Shown here: positions 9,640 to 45,508 of the stretch, piece after piece
Layout: each line of letters starts with the position of its first letter
Numbering within the stretch: the stretch's first letter is position 1
NCBI GenBank assembly: GCA_018818405.1
Contig: JAHIRY010000040.1
Coordinates: 1 to 45,508, forward strand
DNA from: Patescibacteria group bacterium
Lineage (GTDB): Bacteria > Patescibacteriota > Patescibacteriia > UBA11705 > JABHMO01
Direction of reading: 5' to 3'
DNA: 45,508 nt
Translations under genes and position numbers: made by a program
The notes under the pieces: generated by a model
Told to the model about the DNA's origin: nothing
Database searches by the model: none
The model's input: the letters and a program-made list of their open reading frames with translations, nothing else

Positions 9640-10335
9640 ATGGGAAACGGACAACAGCCGAATCATTTGAAAATGCTCTTTAACAAAAAACTGGAAGTGC
9701 TAATCAGCCTTATACTTTCCACGGCGACAGATTGTTTGCATCCGGAGGAAGTCAAACAACTTAAAAAATTACAAAGTATTGCCAATCGTGGAGAAAAAAC
9801 TTGGAAAAGATTGCCGCTGAATACTGCTTATGATGCTTTGTTTTTTATTTTGTACGGATTTCGACCGACGGATTCACCCGAAGACATAAAAACTCTTGTA
9901 ATTGCCAGGGCAAAAATCATTGTTGATTTGATAGCGGGACAAGACAAATGGAATTTCGCGGATTTATTTAAAATCTGGGAAAAAACCACCTTAATCGGTA
10001 ATACCGTTTCCAATCCGGTCATTGGCGCGCGGTTGGTGACATTGCACAGCTGGCAAAGATTCTATTCGAGAAATCCGACAAACACAATTATTAGCGAGAT
10101 ATTGAAAAAAAATTTCACCGACGCTTTCGAGCTGGCAGTCCCGGAAAAATTAAGCGGAAAGGCGCTGGTTGACCGATTGATCCAAAATAAATTCGAACCG
10201 GTATTATACCTCAGGTGCGCAAAACGAAATTTACGATTTGTCGTGCATGATTATGAAGAATCAAACGGCAACAAAGGCGCGATACTAACAGTTGAAGTTC
10301 CTCTGATTTCCAGACATCATCGCGAGCGATGGTAA
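9640..10335 (+). CDS. Hypothetical protein
   Basis: ORF with GAGGAGG SD 7 nt before ATG 9640; upstream TTGAAA-N17-TAAGTT with extended TG. Confidence 0.7.
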   Translation: MGNGQQPNHLKMLFNKKLEVLISLILSTATDCLHPEEVKQLKKLQSIANRGEKTWKRLPLNTAYDALFFILYGFRPTDSPEDIKTLVIARAKIIVDLIAGQDKWNFADLFKIWEKTTLIGNTVSNPVIGARLVTLHSWQRFYSRNPTNTIISEILKKNFTDAFELAVPEKLSGKALVDRLIQNKFEPVLYLRCAKRNLRFVVHDYEESNGNKGAILTVEVPLISRHHRERW

Positions 10336-33179: not shown

Positions 33180-34325
33180 TCATTTACTGGGACGAACTAT
33201 TGTAATGACGATATGATCTTTCAAGCTGGGAATTCTTTTCACCCAGAACGGCGAAAGCGAAATTTTCACTGATTCGACGGAATCGAAATTCGCCAAATAC
33301 AATTCCACGCCTTTTGTGCTCAAGCCGGCGATTTTTTCCTTGTCGAAAATAGCATTGTCTTCCTTTATGATATTTTCTCCTTCAACATGCACTCGCACAT
33401 TGGCTGTCTTTGTATCAACATTGTAATTTTGAACATTGTAGGAAAAATTATTCATATTCAAACTCAACAACTGCTGGCCGTCCGGCACGATTGACTGCAA
33501 ACGACTGCCCGCAAGTTCGAGAATTTTCTCCTGATCCAGCGCAATGGCGGAAATTTTCAGTTTCATTTCAACCGTAAATTTATCCTTTACCGATTCCACC
33601 GGATCGGAAACATTTTCTGACACAACTTCTTTTGCCACAATGATTACCGCGTAATTTTTTCCGGAAACTTGCAGATTGAAATCTTCGAGCGCTTTTGCTT
33701 TCAAGTCTTCTTCCAATTTTTCTTTTGCGCGCGCGATGTCAGCGGCTTTTATCACGCTCACGGAAACGCCCGTGCTCTTCAAGACCGATTGGCTCTCCGC
33801 GTAAACCAGCGATTGCATGCTCTGAGACAATCCGGGAATAATGAAATTCGTTGCCGGCAATTCTTCAAATGAAGTCGGATCATCCGCGTAAACATCTGCT
33901 TCGACCTGTCCGTTGGCCGGAATATCCACGCGATCGGTCAGTCGCAATAAAACGCCGTTCGGATCCAGCAGTCTGGTGGTTTTTACCAGCGCTTGGCTGT
34001 CCCCTCTTTTATTGTAAACAATGACTTTTCCAATGGAATTTCCTGAAAGTCCTTTTGAACCGGTGGCTGTTTCCTCGAGCGAGCCGTCAACCTCTGTTTC
34101 CATCAATTTCGCCTGTAGCGAACCGGATCCGCCTCCGCCGTCAGCCTCCACGTCAGCGACAAATTCGGTTTCAAGCTTCGTCACGCGCGGAGTCACTTCG
34201 ATCACCGCTTTGCTCGCTGAAAAATAAAAAATTATTACAACCAACAAAACCGTGATAACGACAAAACCCAATATCATTTTTTTATAGCCCTCGCTCACGC
34301 CAGGGTGATTGCTTCGTATATACAT
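33180..34325 (-). CDS. Baseplate J-like domain membrane-anchored protein (common in CPR)
   Basis: N-terminal TM; GKVIVYN...Q.LVKTTRL, VYAD..., F.IPGL pattern. Confidence 0.6.
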   Translation of the reverse strand: MYIRSNHPGVSEGYKKMILGFVVITVLLVVIIFYFSASKAVIEVTPRVTKLETEFVADVEADGGGGSGSLQAKLMETEVDGSLEETATGSKGLSGNSIGKVIVYNKRGDSQALVKTTRLLDPNGVLLRLTDRVDIPANGQVEADVYADDPTSFEELPATNFIIPGLSQSMQSLVYAESQSVLKSTGVSVSVIKAADIARAKEKLEEDLKAKALEDFNLQVSGKNYAVIIVAKEVVSENVSDPVESVKDKFTVEMKLKISAIALDQEKILELAGSRLQSIVPDGQQLLSLNMNNFSYNVQNYNVDTKTANVRVHVEGENIIKEDNAIFDKEKIAGLSTKGVELYLANFDSVESVKISLSPFWVKRIPSLKDHIVITIVRPSK

Positions 34326-34465: not shown

Positions 34466-35278
34466 TCACAGCGGACTTTTTATATTTCGCAAAGCCATGT
34501 TGGTCAGATGCGTGTAAATTTGCGTTGTTCGGATATTTTGATGGCCGAGGAGTTCCTGCACATAGCGCACGTCCACTCCGTTTTCCAGGAGATGCGTGGC
34601 AAAGCTGTGGCGCAAAGAATGAAAAGTTGCTGATTTCCCAACTTTTGCTTTCTTCAATGCATTCTCAAAAATTTTCTGCGCGGTTCTCTCGGTCAATCTG
34701 CCGCCGCGCTCGCTTTCCAGTAAAAATTCATCAAAATCACGACAGCCAATCATTTTTATCAGGTCATCTTTCAGTTTTTCCGGAATTACTGAAATTCGAT
34801 CTTTTCCTCCTTTCGATTGTCTGATCGCAATTTGCAAATGAACGCAATCGATGTCTTTTATTTTTAATTTTACAATTTCCGAAACACGAAGTCCCGAGCC
34901 ATAAGCAAGCGCAATAAGCATCCGATGTTTATTATTTCTGATGGAAGCAAGAATTACGGCAATCTCTTCTCGAGAAAAAATTACGGGCAAGCGTTTCGGT
35001 TTGCGCGCATATTTCAAATTAATGCAAAACGGCGCTTTTACTATATTCTCATAAAAAAACTTGATTGCATTCAATCGCACATTAACGGTTTGACCGGAAA
35101 TGCCGCGTTCCAACAAACCCGCCAAATACTTTTTCGTCTTGTATTCATCGAATTTTTCAAAATCACAACCCAAATATCTGAAATAATCCTCAATACAACT
35201 CAAATAACTTTTCACAGTACTCCGGCTGTAATTTCGATACTTCAATTCAATTTCCATTTTCTCAATCCATTGTTGCAT
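34466..35278 (-). CDS. Tyrosine recombinase, IntI-like but lacking the IntI-specific insertion
   Basis: YSxxT..Y SAM-like N-domain, PKRLPV, GLRVSE, KGGKDR, HSLRHSFATHLL, LLGH, TQIYTH; only about 20 aa between the KDR strand region and the pre-HxLRH helix. Confidence 0.93.
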   Translation of the reverse strand: MQQWIEKMEIELKYRNYSRSTVKSYLSCIEDYFRYLGCDFEKFDEYKTKKYLAGLLERGISGQTVNVRLNAIKFFYENIVKAPFCINLKYARKPKRLPVIFSREEIAVILASIRNNKHRMLIALAYGSGLRVSEIVKLKIKDIDCVHLQIAIRQSKGGKDRISVIPEKLKDDLIKMIGCRDFDEFLLESERGGRLTERTAQKIFENALKKAKVGKSATFHSLRHSFATHLLENGVDVRYVQELLGHQNIRTTQIYTHLTNMALRNIKSPL

Positions 35279-35301
35279 AGAACCCCTCCCTTTGTTATAA
35301 T
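35273..35301 (+). promoter_or_regulatory. Pc-like cassette promoter overlapping the recombinase start codon and SD
   Basis: TTGCAT-N17-TATAAT with extended TG. Confidence 0.75.
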
Positions 35302-35313
35302 TATCTTAATCAA

Positions 35314-35322
35314 ATTATAACA
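35314..35322 (-). promoter_or_regulatory. Pint-like extended -10 promoter for the recombinase
   Basis: TGTTATAAT on the minus strand; SD GGGAGGGG before ATG. Confidence 0.6.
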
Positions 35323-35362
35323 TAAATCATAACACAATTCGTTTTAGCTACCAATTATTGCA

Positions 35363-35401
35363 TCTTATACGAAAACATTTCGCATAAGAACGAGTTATAT
35401 G
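35363..35401 (+). other. attI-like primary recombination site
   Basis: Hairpin TCTTATACGAAA-ACA-TTTCGCATAAGA, then ACGA and core GTTATATG; CGCATA box shared with attC right arms. Confidence 0.7.
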
Positions 35402-35622
35402 AAATACATGTTTTCCTTTTGGGGCTATCGCCCCAGCTCTTAAAAAGAATCCGATTTTGTTTTTCTTTTATTATAGAGGGGAAATATGGAGTTTTCTTCG
35501 CTACGCTACGAAAACATTTATTTTATAAGGGGAATAAGCGGTATTTCCTCCGCTTCGCTCCGGAAACGGTTTATTTATTAGGGGAAAACGAATACAATAA
35601 CATTTGTTAAAACATAATAACT

Positions 35623-38214
35623 ATGGCAAACGATAAAGAAGCAAAAGCGCGAATAAAAATTAATAAACTCCTTGAGGATTCAGGGTGGCGTTTTGATGAT
35701 TCTAAAAATGGAAAAGCCAACATCCAACTTGAGGCTGGCGTAAAATTCAATGAACTCGATGAAAATTTAGAAAACGCCGTAACCAGCGATGGTCGTCGCG
35801 GAGCAATTGATTTTCTCTTACTTGATAAAGACGGACGCGCGCTTGTCGTATTAGAAGCAAAAAAAGAATCAATTGATCCACTTTCCGCAAAAGAACAAGC
35901 TAGAAATTATGCACGCAACGTCAATGCACGTTTTGTAATTCTTTCAAACGGCAATATTCATTATTTTTGGGACACTAAACATGGCAATCCGGAAGTGATT
36001 TCTAGATTTCCTACCCAAGATTCAATTACTCAATTCGAAAAATGGGAACCAAATCCAAAAGAATTGGCCGAAACAAAAGTAGATGAAAATTATATTATTG
36101 AATCCCAAATGCCGGGATTTGCCAACGATCCAACTTTTCAAAATACCGACACACGAGGAGAATTTCTAAAAAACAACAATTTAAAACAACTCCGACCTTA
36201 TCAAGTAAACGCAATAAAAAGCCTTCAAACTTCGGCGCAATCAGGACAGAATCGCTTTTTGTTTGAAATGGCAACAGGCACAGGCAAAACCCTTATTTCC
36301 GCCGCCGTCATCAAGTTATTTCTCAAATCAGGCAATGCGCGCAGAGTTTTGTTTTTAGTAGATCGTCTTGAACTTGAAGATCAAGCATTTAAGGCATTTA
36401 GAAACTATTTGGGGCATGATTATGGAACTGTAATTTACAAAGATTCTCACGATTCTTGGCAGAACGCACAAATTGTCGTTTCCACAATTCAGACATTTCT
36501 TGCCGGAGACAGATACAAAAAAGATTTTTCGCCAACCGATTTTGAATTTGTTATTTCCGATGAAGCCCATCGTTCAATTGGAGGAAACAGTCGTGCCGTA
36601 TTTGAATATTTTGTCGGCTATAAATTGGGATTAACCGCTACTCCAAAAGATTATCTAAGAGGATTTGACGGAGAAAATGGCGACACTCAAAGAGAATTTG
36701 AAAGAAGGCAACTTCTCGATACTTACAAAACTTTTGGCTGTGAATCAGGCGAACCAACTTTTCGCTATGATCTTGTCGCCGGAGTAAATGATGGATTTTT
36801 GATCAATCCGATTGTGGTAGACGCACGGACAGAGATAACCACTGATTTGCTTTCCGACGAAGGATTGGCAGTTCACAAAACAAATGAAAATGGCGAATCA
36901 ACTGATGACATTTTCAACGAACGGCATTATGAGCGTAAATTTTTCAACGAGGAAACCAACATCGCCATGTGTAAGGCGTTTATGGATAATGCGCTTTTTG
37001 ATCCAATGGCAAAAAAACGAGGCATTGAATTGTTTGGCAAATCAATTGTTTTCTGTGTTTCTCAAAGGCATGCTGCCAAAATTACCAATATTCTCAACAA
37101 ACTAGCTTTTGAGAAATGGCCAGATCAATACAATGAATCAGATTTTGCCGTTCAAGTTACTTCTCTAGTACAAAACGCCCAGCAAATGACTATAAATTTT
37201 GCCAATAACATGCTTTCAGGCAAGGTACGACAACCCGAAGGCTATGATTCCAGTAAGACCAGAATTGCTGTAACTGTGGGGATGATGACTACTGGCTATG
37301 ATTGCCAGGATATTTTAAATCTTGCTTTGATGCGCCCTGTTTTTTCTCCGGCTGATTTTGTGCAAATCAAAGGGCGTGGCACTCGCAAATATACTTTTGA
37401 ATATGAAGATTATAATTCGGACGAAACTATCGCAGAACCAAAAGAACATTTTAAATTTTTCGATTTCTTTGCAACCTGCGAATACTTTGAAAATGAGTTT
37501 CCTTATGATGAAAAAATTAAACTCCCTGTAGTAAAACAAATTAAATCCGTTGAAGATATTGTTAAAAACCAAGCTAAACAAGGCGAGTTTGTCGATGAAA
37601 ACGGAAACAAAATTTTCAAAGGTCCAATTGACTTGGCAGAAAGCGACGAAGTGGCATCAATAACAGAAACACCGGTCGGAGTAGAAGGTATGCGAATTGA
37701 CCGCGAAGGATTCAAGAGAGCGGTAGAAGAAGATATACGCGGAAACGAAACCCTCAAAAACCTTTGGGAAAATGGCGATACTGAAGAAGCCGAAGATTTT
37801 GCTAAAAAACATGTACTTGATAAACCAAAATATTTTCTCAATCTTGATAAAATTCGTAAAATTTTCAATGTTGATCGTCGAATTAGCGTCAAAGAATTTT
37901 TGCAGGTTGCCTTTGGTGACAAAGATACCTTTGAAATGAAAGATGATTTATTGGAATCAGAATGGGATAAATTTCAAGAAGTAAATTTCAATAATCAGGA
38001 AATTGAAACAGAAAAATATCAAGCGATAAAAATGTTTTTCAAAGCGTATATCGTAGACGAAGAAGTCCGCGATATTATTAAACGAAACCAGCCGGCGGAC
38101 TTTTATCACTGTGCTTCATTTGATTTTTCCGAATATCAAAGACTAAATGGCTTTAAAGAACTCGTGCCAAGATACATCAAAGATTATGTATCACTTAATA
38201 CTTTTATGAATTAG
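35623..38214 (+). CDS. hsdR: Type I restriction enzyme R subunit
   Basis: D...EAK nuclease motif, ATGTGKT, DEAHRS, LTATP, MMTTGYD, QIKGRGTR. Confidence 0.93.
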   Translation: MANDKEAKARIKINKLLEDSGWRFDDSKNGKANIQLEAGVKFNELDENLENAVTSDGRRGAIDFLLLDKDGRALVVLEAKKESIDPLSAKEQARNYARNVNARFVILSNGNIHYFWDTKHGNPEVISRFPTQDSITQFEKWEPNPKELAETKVDENYIIESQMPGFANDPTFQNTDTRGEFLKNNNLKQLRPYQVNAIKSLQTSAQSGQNRFLFEMATGTGKTLISAAVIKLFLKSGNARRVLFLVDRLELEDQAFKAFRNYLGHDYGTVIYKDSHDSWQNAQIVVSTIQTFLAGDRYKKDFSPTDFEFVISDEAHRSIGGNSRAVFEYFVGYKLGLTATPKDYLRGFDGENGDTQREFERRQLLDTYKTFGCESGEPTFRYDLVAGVNDGFLINPIVVDARTEITTDLLSDEGLAVHKTNENGESTDDIFNERHYERKFFNEETNIAMCKAFMDNALFDPMAKKRGIELFGKSIVFCVSQRHAAKITNILNKLAFEKWPDQYNESDFAVQVTSLVQNAQQMTINFANNMLSGKVRQPEGYDSSKTRIAVTVGMMTTGYDCQDILNLALMRPVFSPADFVQIKGRGTRKYTFEYEDYNSDETIAEPKEHFKFFDFFATCEYFENEFPYDEKIKLPVVKQIKSVEDIVKNQAKQGEFVDENGNKIFKGPIDLAESDEVASITETPVGVEGMRIDREGFKRAVEEDIRGNETLKNLWENGDTEEAEDFAKKHVLDKPKYFLNLDKIRKIFNVDRRISVKEFLQVAFGDKDTFEMKDDLLESEWDKFQEVNFNNQEIETEKYQAIKMFFKAYIVDEEVRDIIKRNQPADFYHCASFDFSEYQRLNGFKELVPRYIKDYVSLNTFMN

Positions 38215-38216
38215 AC

Positions 38217-38474
38217 ATGTCTAAAAATAAAAAAAAACAAACAATCGGATTTTGGGATAAGGGAAAAGAAACAACACTTATTAATTGTTCTAGCGAAGGT
38301 TTTGATATTGGCCTAAAGTCAGAGGGTGAAGGGCTACTGGCTAAAAATTTTAAATCGCTAGGTAATACTACAAATTCTGATTGGTATGAAAAATGGTGGA
38401 TGAAATATATTATTTTTCCTCTTGCTGTACTAATCATTGGAGCTTTTGTTATTTTTTATATTGGATTAAATTAA
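38217..38474 (+). CDS. Small protein with C-terminal TM helix within the R-M operon
   Basis: 85 aa; 2 nt after hsdR stop and 4 nt before hsdM start; WWMKYIIFPLAVLIIGAFVIFYIG. Confidence 0.7.
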   Translation: MSKNKKKQTIGFWDKGKETTLINCSSEGFDIGLKSEGEGLLAKNFKSLGNTTNSDWYEKWWMKYIIFPLAVLIIGAFVIFYIGLN

Positions 38475-38478
38475 AACT

Positions 38479-40980
38479 ATGCTTACATCAGAAACAAAAC
38501 GACATATTGATGCGGCTAGGCAAGTCCTCGTGGGCGTAGTGCCAAACCCAACATCACAAATTGATCAGATTACCAACGCGCTGATCTATAAATTTATGGA
38601 TGACATGGATCAATCGGCTATAAAAGCCGGTGGCTCACCATCTTTTTTTACTGATGATTTGGAAAGATATGCTTGGACACGCCTGATGGATAGCAGACTT
38701 GGCAATCAAGAAAGAATGAATCTGTATTCAGAAGCTCTGATTAAATTTTCGCAAGCTAAACAATTACCCGAACTTTTTAGAAATATTTTTAAATCCGCAT
38801 TTTTGCCATATCGCTCACCGGAAGTTTTAGGATTATTTTTAAAAGAAATAAATTATTTTGATTATTCTCACCCAGAAGATTTGGGCGATGGCTATGAATA
38901 TTTGCTTTCAATCATGTCCTCTCAAGGCGATGCAGGACAATTCCGCACCCCTCGCCATATTATTGATTTTATCGTTGATGCTATCAACCCGACAAAAGAC
39001 GACAAAGTACTTGATCCTGCTTGCGGAACAGGTGGATTCTTGGTCAGCTCATACAAGCATATATTAGAACAACACGACGGCAAAAATGATCCGGAAAAGA
39101 AAGAAAAACCGCTCACCCCAGATGACAGAAGAAAACTTTTTCAAAACTTTGAAGGATATGATATCGATCCAGGCATGGTGCGAATTGCGCAGGTCAATAT
39201 GTATCTGCATCAATTCAAAAATCCGAAAATTTTTCAATACGACACTTTGGGAATGGATGAACGCTGGAATGACAAGTTTGATGTAATACTCGCCAATCCG
39301 CCGTTTATGTCGCCAAAAGGTGGTGTTCGTCCGCATAGTAAATTTAGCGTGCAGTCGAGCCGATCAGAGGTTTTGTTTGTGGACTACATCATGAACCACT
39401 TGAAACCCAAAGGCCGAGCAGGTGTAATCGTACCAGAAGGAATTATTTTTCAATCAGGAAGTGCGCACAAACAACTTCGCAAAAACCTCGTCAATGACGG
39501 GCTGTATGCAGTCGTGAGCTTGCCAAGTGGAGTGTTTCAGCCATACAGCGGTGTAAAAACCAGTATTTTGCTTTTTGATAATGAACAAGCGAAGCAACGA
39601 AGTGAGGTTTTGTTTGTAAAAGTGGAAAATGACGGCTTTGATCCGGGCGCAACAAAAAGACCTATTAGCAAAAACGATTTGCCGACTGCTTTGGATATTT
39701 TAGACAAATGGAAAACTGGCGAGAAAGTGGAAAGCAAGTTGGCGGTTTATGTAGAAAAATCCAAAATTGCTGAAAACGGAGACTACAATCTTTCCGGTGA
39801 TCGCTATCGTGTAGCAACAGATTACAGCAATGCAAAATGGCCGATGGTGGAGTTGGGAGAGGTTTCAGAAATATTAAACGGCTACGCTTTCAAGAGTGAA
39901 AAATACACAAACAATGGTATTCGAGTTATTCGAATTACAAATGTACAAAAAGGTAAAATTGTTGATGATGATCCTAAGTTTTACTCTGAAGATTCAATTA
40001 ACGAAATTGGGAAATTTTTACTCGCTAAAAGTGATCTTTTGATTTCTCTCACTGGTAATGTCGGTAGAGTTGGATTGTTACAATCTGACTTATTGCCAGC
40101 CGGACTGAATCAACGAGTTGGTTGTATTCGTCTAAATGACAGCAAACAAGTTTCAATCAGTTATCTTTTTCATGTATTGAATACAGAATTATTTGAAGAT
40201 GATTGTATAAGAGCTTCAAGTGGTGTTGCACAGAAAAATTTAAGTACAGAATGGTTGAAAAAATATCAAATTCCTGTCCCACCTCTCGAAATTCAAGAGC
40301 AAATTGTGGCCGAGTTGGACGGCTACGCAGGCATAATCTCCGGCGCCAAACAAATCTCCCAAAATTGGAAACCAAAAATTGACATCGATCCGGAGTGGGA
40401 GAAAGTGAAGCTGGGGGAAATTGCAACGCTTGTTCAAGGTATAAATACTGCGGTGGATAAGCTTCACTATATTGAAGATGGTATAAAGGTTTTGCAAGCA
40501 AATAATATTTATCAAGGATCTGTGAATTTTGATAATTTAAAATTTATAACTGCAAAAGAATTTTCAGCGATTAACACAAAATACAAACCCACGAAAGAAG
40601 ATGTTTTATATTCAAATATCGGTGCTAGATTTGGGTATGCTTCAACTATAGATTTTGATGATAAATTTACATTTTCCTGGAATGTTATGAGAATGGTTAT
40701 TTTAGATAAATCAAAACTAGACAAATTTTATCTAAAAAATATTCTTAATTCTGATTTACTTCGACAGGTTGTGCTAAGTCAAGCATCAACAAGTACGATG
40801 CCATTTATATCTGGAAAAGATTTGAAGGCAATCGAAATCCCTCTTCCACCTCTCGTTATTCAAAAGCAAATCGTGAAAAAAATCGAGGCCGAGCGCACGC
40901 TGGTGGAATCTGCCAAAAAGTTGATTGATATTTACGAAGAAAAAACAAAAGAAACGATTTCTAAACTGTGGAATGAATAA
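38479..40980 (+). CDS. hsdM-hsdS: Fused type I methyltransferase-specificity subunit (HsdM-HsdS)
   Basis: GQFRTP, DPACGTGG, NPPF (m6A); two target recognition domains closed by PPLEIQEQIV and PPLVIQKQIV. Confidence 0.92.
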   Translation: MLTSETKRHIDAARQVLVGVVPNPTSQIDQITNALIYKFMDDMDQSAIKAGGSPSFFTDDLERYAWTRLMDSRLGNQERMNLYSEALIKFSQAKQLPELFRNIFKSAFLPYRSPEVLGLFLKEINYFDYSHPEDLGDGYEYLLSIMSSQGDAGQFRTPRHIIDFIVDAINPTKDDKVLDPACGTGGFLVSSYKHILEQHDGKNDPEKKEKPLTPDDRRKLFQNFEGYDIDPGMVRIAQVNMYLHQFKNPKIFQYDTLGMDERWNDKFDVILANPPFMSPKGGVRPHSKFSVQSSRSEVLFVDYIMNHLKPKGRAGVIVPEGIIFQSGSAHKQLRKNLVNDGLYAVVSLPSGVFQPYSGVKTSILLFDNEQAKQRSEVLFVKVENDGFDPGATKRPISKNDLPTALDILDKWKTGEKVESKLAVYVEKSKIAENGDYNLSGDRYRVATDYSNAKWPMVELGEVSEILNGYAFKSEKYTNNGIRVIRITNVQKGKIVDDDPKFYSEDSINEIGKFLLAKSDLLISLTGNVGRVGLLQSDLLPAGLNQRVGCIRLNDSKQVSISYLFHVLNTELFEDDCIRASSGVAQKNLSTEWLKKYQIPVPPLEIQEQIVAELDGYAGIISGAKQISQNWKPKIDIDPEWEKVKLGEIATLVQGINTAVDKLHYIEDGIKVLQANNIYQGSVNFDNLKFITAKEFSAINTKYKPTKEDVLYSNIGARFGYASTIDFDDKFTFSWNVMRMVILDKSKLDKFYLKNILNSDLLRQVVLSQASTSTMPFISGKDLKAIEIPLPPLVIQKQIVKKIEAERTLVESAKKLIDIYEEKTKETISKLWNE

Positions 40981-40987
40981 ATAAATT

Positions 40988-42781
40988 ATGCCTCATATAA
41001 TCAAGCACAATTTACTGAAAAAAACTCTCGACGAAATCGCAGAGACTGCGCCGGATCATCTGACGATTTACCATCCGGACGAGAGCGATCAAGATGGCCA
41101 AATTCACAAATATTCTCGGACACAAATCCACCTTTTTTTAAGAGTCCATTTTGGATTATTAGACTTTAATATTGCCGAAGATCAGATTACTGACGGCACA
41201 GATGACGGTGGTCTGGATGCGTATCATATTGACGCAGAAAAGAAAACTATCTATCTTATACAATCAAAATATAAAACTACCCCGGAAGGATACCTTAACA
41301 ATGATGTCGATTGGCGCGAATTCTTTAAAATGGAGCTAGATCGTATTGTCCAAGGCGAAACGGCCTCGTCATCAGGTCACCAATATAATGGAAAAATAAG
41401 AGGTCTCCAACAAAAAATTGGAGAAATTGCTGATATAGCACGGTGGAACTATACACTGATATATTTAGGAAATGTCCCTTCTGCTATTACAAAAGAAAGG
41501 TTGTTAACTGTCAGCGGTGGAGTTTGCACAAACACAGAGATACTACACGGAAACGATTTCTATAACCAAGTTTTAATCCCATATCTTAAGCGTGACTTTT
41601 ACGACAAAGAAGACTTCTCCTTTGAGATATACATCAATCAAGAACGATCAGCAAATCGTATCAGATATTCCGTTGATTTAGCTGATGGCGAATCTGCGGA
41701 GGTCCAGCTTTGTTTTGTCCCAACAATGGAAATAGCAAGGATGATGTCGCAATACAGAAATTCGATTTTACAATACAATCCACGTTGTTATGTAGGTATC
41801 AAAAATACCGGTGTTAATGCTGACATCAGAGACTCAGTTTCTAACACGGCACATAATGAATTTTCATTACTTAACAATGGCATTACCGTTGTCTGCAATG
41901 AGGTAAATTACAACGATAATACTGCGCAACGAGGAAGAGCTTCAATTACTGTATCTAATCCACAGATAGTAAATGGCGGTCAAACAGCGTTTACTTTAGC
42001 ACATCTATTTGAGAATAATTCTGACAATTCAATTTTTGACGGAAAAGAAGTTCTCACAAAATTTATAATTATTGTAGGCAATCGAGATGAAATGATAGAA
42101 AAAATATCTAATGCTACCAATAATCAAAATCCAATAAGGCCAAGGGATAAAGCCTCAAATGATCTAAAAATGATTCAATTGCAGTCGGGCCTCTTTGATC
42201 AATATGGCGTTCTACTCGAAAGAAAGCAGGGAGAATTTTATGACTCGATAAAAGAGGGTCTTATAGACAAAAAAAATGTAATAGACAGCGTTATTCTTAT
42301 GCGTCTTTTGCTTGTATATCGTGGTTCAGTTGCAAGAGCAAGAAGTGCTGGAGAGGGTGTGCTTTTTAGAGATTACAACCTTGACGGAGTTGAAGTTAGC
42401 GAAATTTATAAGCTCATTCGAATTTACAATAAAATCTCTAATCTCGACCAACCTAGTGAAAGAGATGGACGAAAACGTTACCAAATTAATATCTGGGGTA
42501 ATGGACTTAGATACGGTCAATGGGCTATTATATATGCAGTTTATCAATTATCTAAATCCGGTGAAAATCTTAATGATTGTTTGAATCGTGTTCAATCACG
42601 ATGGATAGATTTCGAAACTACTGTTGCAAATCATGAACATAATCAAAGTTATTCTTCTGACGGCTTCGATTATGCAAACTATTATAAAGGAAGTACCATT
42701 GATCGAGATTTAAATGAATATATCCCTAATATAGGAGAATTAGTAGAATCAAAAACCGATGTGGAAATTCCGAAGATATAA
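40988..42781 (+). CDS. AIPR family (abortive infection phage resistance) protein
   Basis: DGTDDGGLDA...IQSKY nuclease-like N-terminus; NPRCYVG, LLNNGIT, PQIVNGGQT, ATNNQN. Confidence 0.88.
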   Translation: MPHIIKHNLLKKTLDEIAETAPDHLTIYHPDESDQDGQIHKYSRTQIHLFLRVHFGLLDFNIAEDQITDGTDDGGLDAYHIDAEKKTIYLIQSKYKTTPEGYLNNDVDWREFFKMELDRIVQGETASSSGHQYNGKIRGLQQKIGEIADIARWNYTLIYLGNVPSAITKERLLTVSGGVCTNTEILHGNDFYNQVLIPYLKRDFYDKEDFSFEIYINQERSANRIRYSVDLADGESAEVQLCFVPTMEIARMMSQYRNSILQYNPRCYVGIKNTGVNADIRDSVSNTAHNEFSLLNNGITVVCNEVNYNDNTAQRGRASITVSNPQIVNGGQTAFTLAHLFENNSDNSIFDGKEVLTKFIIIVGNRDEMIEKISNATNNQNPIRPRDKASNDLKMIQLQSGLFDQYGVLLERKQGEFYDSIKEGLIDKKNVIDSVILMRLLLVYRGSVARARSAGEGVLFRDYNLDGVEVSEIYKLIRIYNKISNLDQPSERDGRKRYQINIWGNGLRYGQWAIIYAVYQLSKSGENLNDCLNRVQSRWIDFETTVANHEHNQSYSSDGFDYANYYKGSTIDRDLNEYIPNIGELVESKTDVEIPKI

Positions 42782-42977
42782 AATAATAGTGTGTTTTCGG
42801 TCGGGGCAATTCACCCCTTTTCTTCCCCTCTTGCCCCTCCCTCAAACAGAAATAGGAGTTTTGGGCTTCGGGCATTCACCCCTAACCCCTCTGCCCTTCG
42901 CCCAAAACAGAAAAACAAAATCAGATTCTTTTTAAGAGCGATTTGCTATCGCAAATCAAAAGGAAAACATGTACATC

Positions 42978-43104
42978 ATATAACACTGCGTATGCGGTTA
43001 CGGCTTGCTCCGTACCTCCGCAAGCCTACACCCATATTTGCCAGTGGTAAGCACTTCGTGCAATTATACCACTGGCAAACATCGCATACGCAGGAACGTT
43101 AGCT
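42978..43104 (+). other. attC-like site 1 (127 bp)
   Basis: ATATAAC...GTTAGCT; arms CTGCGTATGCG/CGCATACGCAG. Confidence 0.85.
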
Positions 43105-43123
43105 GAAATTTTAAAATTTATTT

Positions 43124-43837
43124 ATGCCTGAAAAATATAATAATCCGTCGCCCCCAGAAAAAGAAAGTGGATTTTATAGCGACATCGTTCGGCGGTATGA
43201 AACAGAAGTAAATCGCTTTGTTCCAGGTTATGCTGAGGAAATTGTTCCTCTCGTAACTGGTGAAGTAATCAGAAAAGCTCATAACGGAGCTGTTTTAGAC
43301 CTTGGCTCTGGCGTAGGGAATGTAGATGAAATCATTATAGATCAAGCAAACCCTCAATCCATTGACTTAGTTGAAATTTTAGAGCCAATGATTGAAGAAT
43401 CTAAAAAGCGATTGGAAGATAAAAATTCCACCATTCGTTTTCATGAGATGTCCGCTGAAGATTTTGAAGCCGAACCAAATAGTTTTAATGCAGTACTGTC
43501 AAACCTTGTTATTCACAATATCCCTTATGAAGACAAAGTTAGACTTATAAGCAATATTCATAAGTGGCTTAAAGATGGTGGAATTTTTATCTGGACTGAT
43601 CTTGTGAGCTTTTCTGATACCGCCGAACTCGAAAGATGTTTTGAAGAGCGTAAAAAAATAGCCATTTCGATGGGGGCGACTGAGGAATTCGCAGAAGAGA
43701 ATTTTAAAAAGGAACGAGAAGAAGATAATATGATTACCGTTGAACAAATGACTGAAATGCTACAACAAGCTGGTTTTCAAAATATTGAAATTCTCTGGAC
43801 TCGGTACAATGAAGTGGTCATGCGAGCAACGAAATAA
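43124..43837 (+). CDS. Class I SAM-dependent methyltransferase (loosely CmoA-like), cassette 2
   Basis: VLDLGSGVG motif I, NLVIHN, LKDGGIF. Confidence 0.85.
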   Translation: MPEKYNNPSPPEKESGFYSDIVRRYETEVNRFVPGYAEEIVPLVTGEVIRKAHNGAVLDLGSGVGNVDEIIIDQANPQSIDLVEILEPMIEESKKRLEDKNSTIRFHEMSAEDFEAEPNSFNAVLSNLVIHNIPYEDKVRLISNIHKWLKDGGIFIWTDLVSFSDTAELERCFEERKKIAISMGATEEFAEENFKKEREEDNMITVEQMTEMLQQAGFQNIEILWTRYNEVVMRATK

Positions 43838-43850
43838 ATTTTAAAACATC

Positions 43851-43926
43851 AGCTAACATTGAATATCTGGTTCCGCTTCGCTCCACCCAAATTGCTCGCA
43901 ACTTCAGATATCCAGAAACGTTGTAC
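43851..43926 (+). other. attC-like site 2 (76 bp)
   Basis: AGCTAAC...GTTGTAC; arms TTGAATATCTG/CAGATATCCAG. Confidence 0.85.
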
Positions 43927-44174
43927 GAAATTCCAACTAGTAAACGAGGTAGATTGAAAGTTTGTGCAAACAAAAAAGCACGTCTTAAAAACGAACTTTT
44001 AACTGATTACCCGTCGGAACTGTCGTACAACACCGAGTATGCGGTTGCGTGAAGAAGAAATTATTGATTTTTCTTTTCATTTTAAATCTGGCTCTTTTCA
44101 ATTTTTTCTATCAGAAAGTGAAGCGCCCTGCCCGAGATGTCTCGAACAGGGCGTGATCTATGACATGAAGGAAG

Positions 44175-44549
44175 CTACGGACCCTCGAACATGATCCGCC
44201 TGCCAACCGCCCGATTGTATGCGCTGTCCTCTCCCGTCAAATCCTTTGACGTATTGTTACCCATTGCGAAAATGGTTGCGAACAGATCTGACACCATCGG
44301 GCGATCAATGCTGTCAAGTGCCAGAAGCGCTGTAAACACTGAACTGACTGGATCAGAACTCCCTGTTGCATTGTCGAGGTTGTGAGTCGAGAACTCTCTG
44401 TGAGACACCACGTATCCACCATCAGGGTTATAGCTCTTGAGCCACGCTTCCCTGTCTTTGATGAAAAGTGCTGCATCATCACCACTCAGAAGATGCCAAG
44501 AGGTTGCCAGTTCGGCACCCTCAGCGACACGCACGAAAACATGCTTCAT
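44175..44549 (-). CDS. Hypothetical 124-aa protein inside attC3, antisense to the array
   Basis: AGGAGG SD 7 nt before ATG; own promoter; hairpin 44124-44153 after the stop. Confidence 0.7.
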   Translation of the reverse strand: MKHVFVRVAEGAELATSWHLLSGDDAALFIKDREAWLKSYNPDGGYVVSHREFSTHNLDNATGSSDPVSSVFTALLALDSIDRPMVSDLFATIFAMGNNTSKDLTGEDSAYNRAVGRRIMFEGP

Positions 44550-44589
44550 GTTTTACCCTCCTAAATTCGTCGCGGAATTGCGACTTCAT

Positions 44590-44619
44590 ATATTAGCAGA
44601 TCCACACCCCACCTGTCAA
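44590..44619 (-). promoter_or_regulatory. Promoter of the attC-embedded gene
   Basis: TTGACA-N18-TAATAT with extended TG. Confidence 0.65.
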
Positions 44620-44879
44620 GCCAACGAGGGACGAAAAAATTGAAAAGAGCCCTAAATTAAGGAAAAAAATCAATAATTTCTTCTTCACTCCACCCAAATC
44701 CCGCTCTTGAAATTGAGGGTTTTAAGGGGTAAAATAGGTTGGTGTTGAAGCGAAAGTTTGTACTAAAAACGAAGGGCGGGACTTCGCATACTCGGGGACG
44801 TTAAACGTAATCAGTAAAGTGGCTATAAAGTGGAAGTCGTTCCGATAACTTTTTTAATTAGTATCATTTTTTAATTAAC

Positions 44880-45506
44880 ATGACTCAAATCGTAGAAACT
44901 TGCAAATTCGTTGTTGATAATTCTCAACACGTAAAAATAAACTTGGAAAAGGTTGATGAGTTTGTCAATTATTTTAGTCATTCCCATATCAAACATTGGT
45001 TTAATGAATCGCCCTTTAATATTAGAAATTTAGCCCCCAAAGAAAGATTGCATTTTTTATTGGTGTTTAATTCGATTAGTTTTTCTTATTGGGGAGATCC
45101 AAAATGGAGAATTAATTATCATTCCAAAGAAATAGATGGAGCCTATGGAATGATTGGAGCAATTGGCAGAGCAATTGAAAATAAGACTCCCATTTTGGAT
45201 GCAAAATTTCTTTCTGAGATTAAAGAAGAAGAGTTTAGTAAAATTTTAGAAGGAACTGTTCAAATTCCTCTTTTTGAAGATAGATTAAATATTTTGCGAG
45301 AAATTGGAACAATCCTCTTGGAAAAATTTGAAGGCGATTTTACTAACCTCATCAATCAAGCCAATGGCGATTCACAAAAATTATTGAGTTTGATAATTGA
45401 GAATTTTCCTTCTTTTAATGACTCCTCAATTTACAATGGAAGACAAGTTTATTTTTACAAGCGTGCACAACTTTTAGTTGCTGATGTTGTGCAAGCTTTC
45501 AACGGA
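44880..45506 (+). CDS. Queuosine salvage protein (Qng1/DUF2419 family), partial, cassette 4
   Basis: Not in ORF track; manual translation MTQIVETCKFVVDNSQHVKIN...FNSISFSYWG...IPLFEDR...FPSFNDSSIYNGRQVYFYKRAQLLVAD. Confidence 0.85.
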   Translation, partial: MTQIVETCKFVVDNSQHVKINLEKVDEFVNYFSHSHIKHWFNESPFNIRNLAPKERLHFLLVFNSISFSYWGDPKWRINYHSKEIDGAYGMIGAIGRAIENKTPILDAKFLSEIKEEEFSKILEGTVQIPLFEDRLNILREIGTILLEKFEGDFTNLINQANGDSQKLLSLIIENFPSFNDSSIYNGRQVYFYKRAQLLVADVVQAFNG

Positions 45507-45508
45507 CA

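Follow-up and report, generated by a model that had tools for sequence, protein, structure and literature searches.

The window analysed here is the whole of contig JAHIRY010000040.1 (C16), 45,508 nucleotides (nt) long, from a Patescibacteria group bacterium whose genome of 1.06 Mb is assembled in 48 contigs with 41% G+C. It holds a tyrosine recombinase gene and, running divergently from it, four units with three repeats standing between them. The repeats share one elaborate anatomy, and we think it rather probable that they are the attC analogues of an integron-like platform of bacteria of the candidate phyla radiation (CPR), in which a folded strand would present an R box and an L box interrupted by a hairpin (H1), H1 serving as the mark of strand and orientation. 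Canonical attC sites are ordered R''-L''-variable terminal structure-L'-R', and it is their folded bottom strand that is recombined by the integron integrase IntI. In classical integrons, strand and orientation are set by the extrahelical bases of the folded attC, which are read by the I2 helix.

All three repeats can be read in the same way: AAC, an A, an 11-nt arm, H1, a CC linker, a second hairpin (H2), the complementary arm, one of the tetranucleotides GAAC, AAAC or GGAC, and GTT. This parse had been proposed in a first-pass annotation made from the letters alone, and both direct reading and the wider sampling described below bear it out. From AAC to GTT the sites span 42982-43100 (site 1, 119 nt), 43855-43922 (site 2, 68 nt) and 44029-44802 (site 3, 774 nt); the lengths first reported (127, 76 and 782) hold when four flanking bases on each side are included. 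In the window H1 has the form GT-TNC...TNC-AC and H2 the form AWAT...ACWT, with an A.C mismatch at pair 3. The arms pair at 11/11 positions in sites 1 and 3 and at 9/11 in site 2 (one T.G, one A.C). The motif CACCCAWAT occurs exactly three times in the window (43029, 43884 and 44691), compared to 0.54 expected.

The same genome has more sites on contigs C1, C5, C23, C33 and C48, and a pattern search detected sites in at least 12 of 41 related genomes. An anchor-only scan of this genome and of the arrays of its relatives, which used AAC-A-arm and arm-N2-4-GTT with TA in the arm but ignored the inner motif, returned 55 sites, and all 55 parse inside as arm, H1, CC (rarely TC, GC or CT), H2 and arm. 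A covariance model made from 55 full sites was run on 401 genomes drawn evenly from the phylum, as the first-pass annotation had suggested for CPR genomes. It matched 62 of them (about 15%; 61 of 320 genera) and left 339 without a match. When it was applied to 60 recombinase loci comprising 706 kb, all 65 matches lay upstream of the recombinase on the divergent strand, and there was none on the other strand. The specificity of the model is judged by the 339 unmatched genomes and by the empty opposite strand. Moreover, the model recovered 104 sites in 18 genomes, none of them used for model building, and this independent set keeps the paired helices. The branched fold of arm, H1, CC and H2 is retained while length varies, as had been claimed from the three window sites.

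The junction CACCCA, which had been expected to recur in additional sites, survives in part. Its core, CC-AWAT, is conserved together with the helices, and CC is present in 87/93 sites and in 87/104 of the independent set. CACCCAWAT as a universal signature, however, can be ruled out, as many true sites read CGCCCA, CTCCCA, TTCCCA, CGTCCA or CAACCA. An H1 that starts with GC, GA or AC ends with GC, TC or GT, respectively, before CC (CGCCCA, TTCCCA, CGTCCA). Because the start and the end of H1 change together, the "CA" of CACCCA is the 3' half of two covarying H1 basal pairs. Pair 3 of H2 is A.C in 88/93 and 100/104 sites, and almost every site has NNAC or NAC as its 3' spacer.

Four boxes emerge from the position frequencies of 93 sites and again from those of the independent 104. 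R'' forms the 5' end of the site (aCaTCryATAAC) and R' its 3' end (G|TTAtrYGAAAT). L'' consists of the last 7 nt of the 5' arm and the first 4 nt of H2 (ATATnYG^AAAT, where ^ is the insertion point of H1 and CC), and L' of the last 4 nt of H2 and the first 7 nt of the 3' arm (ACwTCrnATAt). L''/L' repeats R'/R'', and both relations are seen in both data sets. The "arm" is therefore composite, made of 4 bp of central spacer and 7 bp of L box. The L box is 11 bp long, runs across the junction into the base of H2 and lacks the GTT triplet; H1 and CC branch from its L'' strand between positions 7 and 8. What had been described as a three-way junction thus appears to be an L box with a branch set into it. 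A C.A mismatch recurs at one and the same position of either box (L, ACWT versus AWAT; R, ACATC versus GAAAT, with an additional A.A). Between the boxes the 5' strand reads C-A-NNNN and the 3' strand NNNN-(R)RAC-G, which gives four pairs and a 1x3-4 loop, with a central spacer that measures 5 nt along the 5' strand and 7-8 nt along the 3' strand. The loop would be the counterpart of the unpaired central spacer of canonical attC. In the anchor-selected sets the cores AAC and GTT are invariant, R' being GTT-A-K-R-Y and R'' R-Y-M-T-AAC.

Identification of the sites as attC-type cassette sites is therefore upheld, but the departure from the R-box/L-box plan that had been read into them was overstated, since both boxes are present and the loop sits at the place of the canonical spacer. 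A second inverted box pair, L''/L', lies past a short, partly unpaired spacer, as in attC. The two or three single extrahelical bases of the R''-L'' arm were not found; instead, that arm bears the branch of H1 and CC (at least 8 + 2 nt).

Two features of the boxes and the junction deserve separate mention. R'' comes in two flavours, ...ACATCnnnnAAC and ...GTCGGGrCnnnnAAC or TCACCCTCnnnnAAC (e.g., contig C23 3377-3389 and locus L031 9472-9483). The second accompanies a 3-nt 3' spacer and AGGGATATACG or AGGATTATGAG arms, which resembles site subfamilies within one array. Furthermore, at the base of H1 all sites conserve an internal loop rich in pyrimidines (GTTCn / nTTCAC), as well as the near-invariant CC, and the base-pairing model leaves both unexplained.

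All three window sites lie on the plus strand. Site 1 begins with the R'' box ACATCATATAAC (42973-42984), which complements the start of cassette 1 at 35394. The unpaired A and the 5' arm CTGCGTATGCG follow (42985-42996), the arm being complementary at 11/11 positions to 43083-43093; its first 4 nt are central spacer and its last 7 nt (42990-42996) the first part of L''. The branch is a 35-nt hairpin (42997-43031; GT-TAC-GGCTTGC...GCAAGCC-TAC-AC) that appears in the DNA fold of both strands. Next come the CC linker (43032-43033) and H2 (43034-43082), which is also found in the DNA fold; its first 4 nt (ATAT) end L'', its last 4 nt (ACAT) start L', and the rest is variable apex. The 3' arm CGCATACGCAG with the unpaired GAAC (43083-43097) leads to the R' box G|TTAGCTGAAAT (43098-43109), which is the start of cassette 2 and complements AGCTAAC in R'' of site 2.

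Site 2 (43846-43931) is a minimal site that scores 77.6 bits with the covariance model. It is made up of R'' (43846-43857), A (43858), arm (43859-43869), a 17-nt H1 (43870-43886), CC (43887-43888), a 16-nt H2 (43889-43904), arm (43905-43915), AAAC (43916-43919) and R' (43920-43931). The corresponding parts of the long site 3 (44020-44811) are R'' (44020-44031), A (44032), arm (44033-44043), H1 (44044-44693), CC (44694-44695), H2 (44696-44784), arm (44785-44795), GGAC (44796-44799) and R' (44800-44811). Its H1 has a 650-nt loop with a closing stem of about 24 bp (44049-44073 with 44662-44688) and encloses a 124-aa antisense open reading frame (ORF; 44175-44549). The same type of site, alike in arms and H1 stem, recurs at contig C1 2039-2712 and at locus L031 5815-6472.

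The layout of an integron platform, with the recombinase gene divergent from the cassette array and attI between them, is seen in the window. An attI-like site (35377-35405, plus strand) reads ATTTCGCATAA-GAACGAG|TTATATGAAAT and has two 11-bp inverted arms around a 7-bp centre. Its predicted crossover, G|TT at 35394|35395, is where the first cassette starts. The motif A(C/T)TTCGYATAA-WAACGAG-TTAnnnGAAAT recurs in about 35 related loci, always equally far upstream of the start of the recombinase gene. Since the left arm is the L' sequence and the right arm the R' sequence, a folded single-strand site would rebuild the duplex that attI offers.

GTT-nnnn-GAAAT opens every unit, and the complement of that opening closes it. 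In the window the start and end pairs are GTTAGCTGA.../...TCAGCTAAC and GTTGTACGA.../...TCGTACAAC, and the 7.6-kb unit has GTTATATGAAATACATG at its start (35394) and CATGTACATCATATAAC at its end (42984), so that all three window cassettes match. Complementary ends of this kind are the signature of integron cassettes. On a wider scale, the variable tetranucleotide of R'' complements that of the R' preceding the cassette at 4/4 positions in 28 of 52 neighbouring pairs and at 3/4 in 10 more, whereas 7.6% of random pairs match at 4/4; positions 7-8 are mismatched in 92% of neighbouring pairs. Finally, contig C5:1-300 (minus strand) compared with window 43096-43220 reveals that the start of cassette 2, the methyltransferase cassette, is present twice, the two copies being 96.8% identical. 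The copy on C5 follows an unrelated site, its identity starts exactly at AC|GTT, and the contig stops after 125 nt of the cassette. The crossover probably lies at G|TT. Fixed orientation, matched cassette ends and compensatory changes rule out that the repeats are chance repeats or resemble miniature inverted-repeat transposable elements.

To quantify covariation we condensed 46 distinct sites into an alignment (A1) of the arms, the H1 basal pairs and the first six H2 pairs. Here 93% of the cells are paired, 13 of 19 pairs show compensatory change, and the covariation score is 0.661, compared to at most 0.134 with slid partners. For the independent 104 sites (A3) the respective values are 93.8%, 15 of 21 pairs, and 0.50 versus at most 0.045. 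Covarying arm pairs number 8/11 in the first and 9/11 in the independent set, and 98% (A1) and 93.5% (A3) of arm pairs are Watson-Crick or G.T, with no bulges. In both sets the H1 basal pairs covary among sites as GT/AC, GC/GC, GA/TC and AC/GT. In A3, pair 1 of H1 is GC in 78 and AU in 11 sites, pair 2 of H1 is UA in 44, CG in 17 and AU in 8, and pair 2 of H2 is AU in 48, UA in 40 and CG in 5. The covariation of arms, H1 base and H2 pair 2 that had been noticed in three sites is thus confirmed by more than 40 genomes with about 200 sites in all. Compensated variation is seen in the stems of H1 and H2 and at 8-9 arm pairs, whereas the CC linker, the A.C pair and both 11-bp boxes keep their sequence.

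Folding with DNA parameters, which the first-pass annotation had recommended for both strands, gave the three-way junction of site 1 on either strand (z about -6.5). Among 46 short sites, the minimum-energy DNA fold contains the three-way junction in 35 for the top and in 38 for the bottom strand. The bottom strand is more stable in 43/46 (mean -19.8 versus -17.7 kcal/mol). This is indirect evidence for the suggested folding of the bottom strand; the argument originally given for it, that the A.C mismatch turns into a G.T wobble on that strand, is weak.

Several observations count against a structured single-strand site. Outside the conserved A.C pair there is no mismatch bias that names the folded strand (31 A.C versus 23 G.T on the top strand). 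The fold energy of the minimal 68-nt site 2 cannot be told apart from that of its shuffles (z +0.5 and -0.5), and its fold therefore rests on comparison, not on energy. The pair counts in A1 and A3 are partly circular, since arms were chosen for complementarity and A3 was fitted to the model; the A1 parser also required H2 pairs 1, 2 and 4, while the H1 pairs and H2 pairs 5-6 were unconstrained. Although the fitting favours the structure in A3, its signal remains clear from the slid controls and from the compensatory pair types. RNAalifold on an unfitted MAFFT alignment (A2) recovers AAC/GTT and the arm alone, not H1 or H2, because the basal helices are too short and the interiors cannot be aligned. 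Support for the short helices at the base of H1 and H2 therefore comes from covariation and from folds of single sequences. In addition, H1 taken by itself is predicted to lack structure in 15-19% of the sites; H1 alone reaches -2 kcal/mol or below in 62-66%, and the shortest are 8-17 nt long. As H1 is not always helical, what stays constant is that one strand carries an insertion at a given point, usually a hairpin. Lastly, the L'-spacer-R' stretch forms an uninterrupted duplex palindrome wherever two cassettes meet and as such may also be recognised as double-stranded DNA.

The strand asymmetry bears on whether the structure acts in RNA, as an intercistronic terminator, a processing site or a transcript stabiliser, with the link to cassette ends being secondary. 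The sites are intergenic and in a single orientation, and a sense transcript would form the same helices. However, the conserved C.A mismatches weaken the sense-strand fold relative to the better-folding bottom strand, and the partner of R'' lies at the opposite cassette end, an arrangement that is meaningful only for a circle or at the DNA level. Moreover, an Rfam scan of 35200-45508 at a permissive threshold returned only matches at chance level, and none on the sites. We consider a primary role in RNA very improbable.

The variability of H1 could also mean that the sites are ordinary attC sites. H1 and H2 would then be a conserved branched variable terminal structure, the L box would be the 7-bp end of the arm, and the branch, having no role in recognition, would merely aid hairpin formation or be inherited baggage. 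The Vibrio cholerae repeats (VCRs), which are attC sites, do carry, above the L stem, a large and branched terminal structure that is dispensable (PMC2727003). The order R''-5 nt-7 bp...7 bp-spacer-R' fits the canonical plan, and an H1 that shrinks to 8 nt or is unstructured would suit a dispensable branch. But in VCR the branch lies beyond the L stem and its base is not conserved in sequence, whereas the CPR branch point is fixed within the L box between near-invariant flanks. Throughout the phylum, CC-AWAT/ACWT at the branch point is nearly invariant, and AWAT/ACWT extends the repeat of the R box and of the left attI arm, C.A mismatch included. The branch is always on the R''-L'' arm and at the same base, and both the canonical extrahelical bases and the protein region that reads them are absent. 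This makes ordinary attC sites an unlikely explanation. A branched terminal structure per se is already known from VCR; what is new is a branch point inside a sequence-conserved box, without extrahelical bases or I2.

The recombinase gene (34466-35278, minus strand) encodes a 270-aa protein that matches Pfam Phage_integrase (2.9e-40). Its best model is the NCBIfam integron integrase TIGR02249, which it matches in two stretches with 223.8 bits (cut-off 265), and the XerA model gives 213.5 (cut-off 220). The best solved relative, VchIntIA (2A3V, 5e-43), also aligns in two stretches, and chain residues 203-239 are skipped. These residues are the IntI-specific I2 region, which is absent from the alignment, and by this mark the recombinase falls outside IntI. 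Taken together with the site anatomy, the sequences suggest an attC variant tied to an IntI-like enzyme without I2.

We found 60 homologues of the recombinase, all of about 270 aa. They come from metagenome-assembled genomes (MAGs) labelled Uhrbacteria, Falkowbacteria, Kuenenbacteria, Moranbacteria, Berkelbacteria, Roizmanbacteria, WWE3, Peregrinibacteria, Saccharibacteria, Gracilibacteria, Nomurabacteria and others, and one is from an Altiarchaeales MAG. The recombinase of the latter (locus L053) is 57% identical, an attI-like site (ACTTCGTATAAAAACGAGTTATCCAAAAT) lies about 90 nt upstream of the gene, and the model has one weak match at 9654-9763 (E = 7.5e-5). This case reflects either spread across domains or a binning error. 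Archaeal integrons have canonical attC sites and IntIs with the additional domain (PMC9668308).

An enzyme without the I2 helix raises the question of conventional duplex recombination, as in Xer/dif, between the L'-spacer-R' palindrome and attI, with the 5' half of the site (R''-L'', H1 and H2) serving for termination or insulation between cassettes. L'-spacer-R' does resemble the double-stranded attI-like site, and one account holds that the acquisition of I2 was what allowed single-strand recombination, turning a Xer-like enzyme into an integron integrase (PMC7790495). A duplex mechanism leaves unexplained, however, both the complementarity of the R'' and R' tetranucleotides across the cassette and the covariation of the 11-bp arms, since a purely duplex crossover at L'-spacer-R' would not select for either. 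Furthermore, the spacer is 8-9 bp long in the double-stranded attC but 7 bp in attI. Duplex recombination is therefore, in our view, an improbable explanation.

Enzymes lacking I2 can handle folded DNA, as XerCD acting on the folded strand of CTX phage demonstrates: XerCD has no I2, yet it accepts a folded site which imitates the duplex one. Val and co-workers reportedly described in 2005 that the attP(+) of this phage is a folded single-stranded forked hairpin which is recombined by XerCD at dif. The CPR sites would be alike in that a folded single strand recreates the duplex core site of a Xer-type recombinase without an I2 helix, and in a partly unpaired central region, such that a single strand would be exchanged and the junction resolved by replication. 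Unlike them, the phage site is one integration site, without a cassette array and without a conserved branch in a binding arm.

Based on these features, we propose the following scheme for the attC-like reading of the sites. One strand would fold such that R'' pairs with R' to form an R box bearing the G|TT crossover. Next would come the central spacer, with 4 paired bp and the 1x3-4 internal loop, and then the L box, in which the final 7 bp of the arm would stack on the 4 bp at the base of H2, the remainder of H2 being variable apex. The folded L'-spacer-R' strand would resemble the duplex attI-like site (ACTTCGYATAA-7 bp-TTAnnnGAAAT) and could be bound by two monomers of the short IntI-like recombinase. 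H1, the asymmetric spacer and the C.A mismatch in both boxes would mark the recombined strand and its orientation, with H1 standing in for the extrahelical bases of classical integrons. Cleavage would occur at the R box (AAC/GTT) only, and replication would then resolve the junction, as in classical integrons and in CTX integration by XerCD.

Much of this matches canonical attC. Sites stand at cassette ends, the arrays are divergent from a tyrosine recombinase gene with attI beside it, the cores are AAC...GTT, and R' is often the classical GTTAGGC, GTTAGCT or GTTAAAC. Cassette ends are complementary, the order of R box, partly unpaired spacer (5 nt on the R''-L'' side), L box and variable apex is the same, and extra unpaired material lies on the R''-L'' arm. 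In contrast to canonical attC, the L box of the CPR sites is broken by an 8-60-nt branch (about 1 kb with a gene) and CC, not by single extrahelical bases. Their 11-bp boxes share a conserved sequence (TATnYGAAAT), whereas little past AAC/GTT is kept in canonical sites. They also have the conserved C.A mismatch in both boxes and a 3' spacer side that is 2-3 nt longer, and their recombinase lacks the I2 region. The recombinase is like XerA, XerC and XerD in size and domains, and the attI-like site is a classical 11 bp-7 bp-11 bp core. Unlike the CPR sites, however, dif sites are plain duplexes without a conserved palindromic partner half, and pdif modules have inverted flanking sites rather than direct folded sites with matched ends.

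The CPR system therefore has the full logic of an integron (attI, matched ends, R and L boxes) without I2 or extrahelical bases. Full-text literature searches found no description of integrons or of such sites in CPR bacteria. It is conceivable, although we put it forward with some reserve, that this is a phylum-wide integron family which operates without the I2 helix, its recombinase recognising a folded single strand. Strand and orientation would then be specified by a hairpin branch set into the L box, in place of extrahelical bases. Should the branch indeed be the strand mark, it would be a second solution to structure-specific recombination, and the origin of integrons would become testable. 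The system could then represent an ancestral or an independent route from Xer-type duplex to integron-type single-strand recombination, and the hairpin loops of recombination sites could house whole genes. The arrays carry defence genes and other cargo in hosts with very small genomes. Standard integron finders, which seek an IntI with the additional domain and canonical attC sites, probably miss them.

In the window, the array starts with the 7.6-kb unit 1 (35395-42984), which contains hsdR, hsdM-S and an AIPR gene. Unit 2 (43124-43837) is the methyltransferase cassette, unit 3 is short, and unit 4 carries a queuosine-salvage gene. The restriction-modification/AIPR cassette is flanked by long inverted repeats (35405-35470 and 42905-42975) which extend well past the R box, for example CTCTTAAAAAGAATCyGATTTTGTTTTTC, and similar starts (GTTAGCTGAAATATTCCTTTTCTTTTCTGGGCTATCGCCC) follow sites on contigs C1 and C23. 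A 381-aa ORF downstream of the recombinase (33180-34325) was considered as a conserved accessory protein and rejected, as it has no family match and no synteny elsewhere. Comparison of the homologue loci revealed no conserved gene accompanying the recombinase.

Site types seem to be mobile between lineages. Locus L096 62-204 resembles window 42970-43112 nearly base for base, yet the adjoining recombinase is just 49% identical, and several H2 types, e.g., AAATTTTTCTTCCACTTCGTTCCAGAAAAACTT, are found again across families. One H1 type (GTTCAAGAATTTTT...AAAAATTCTTTCAC) has TAAGGAG or TAAGGAA in its loop (L069 5834, L076 96, L085 6654 and L097 6732). Finally, whole genes lie within H1 or H2 loops closed by stems of 12-25 bp, with ORFs of 124-233 aa in sense or antisense. 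Besides window 44044-44693, this applies to C23 7623-8325, L060 1200-1901, L033 3419-4527 and 4562-5119, L037 938-1794 and L058 3829-4396. In such cassettes there is nearly nothing between R' and R'', and the 199-aa ORF that the C23 site holds in its H2 loop has a 93% identical counterpart in a different genome (L060).

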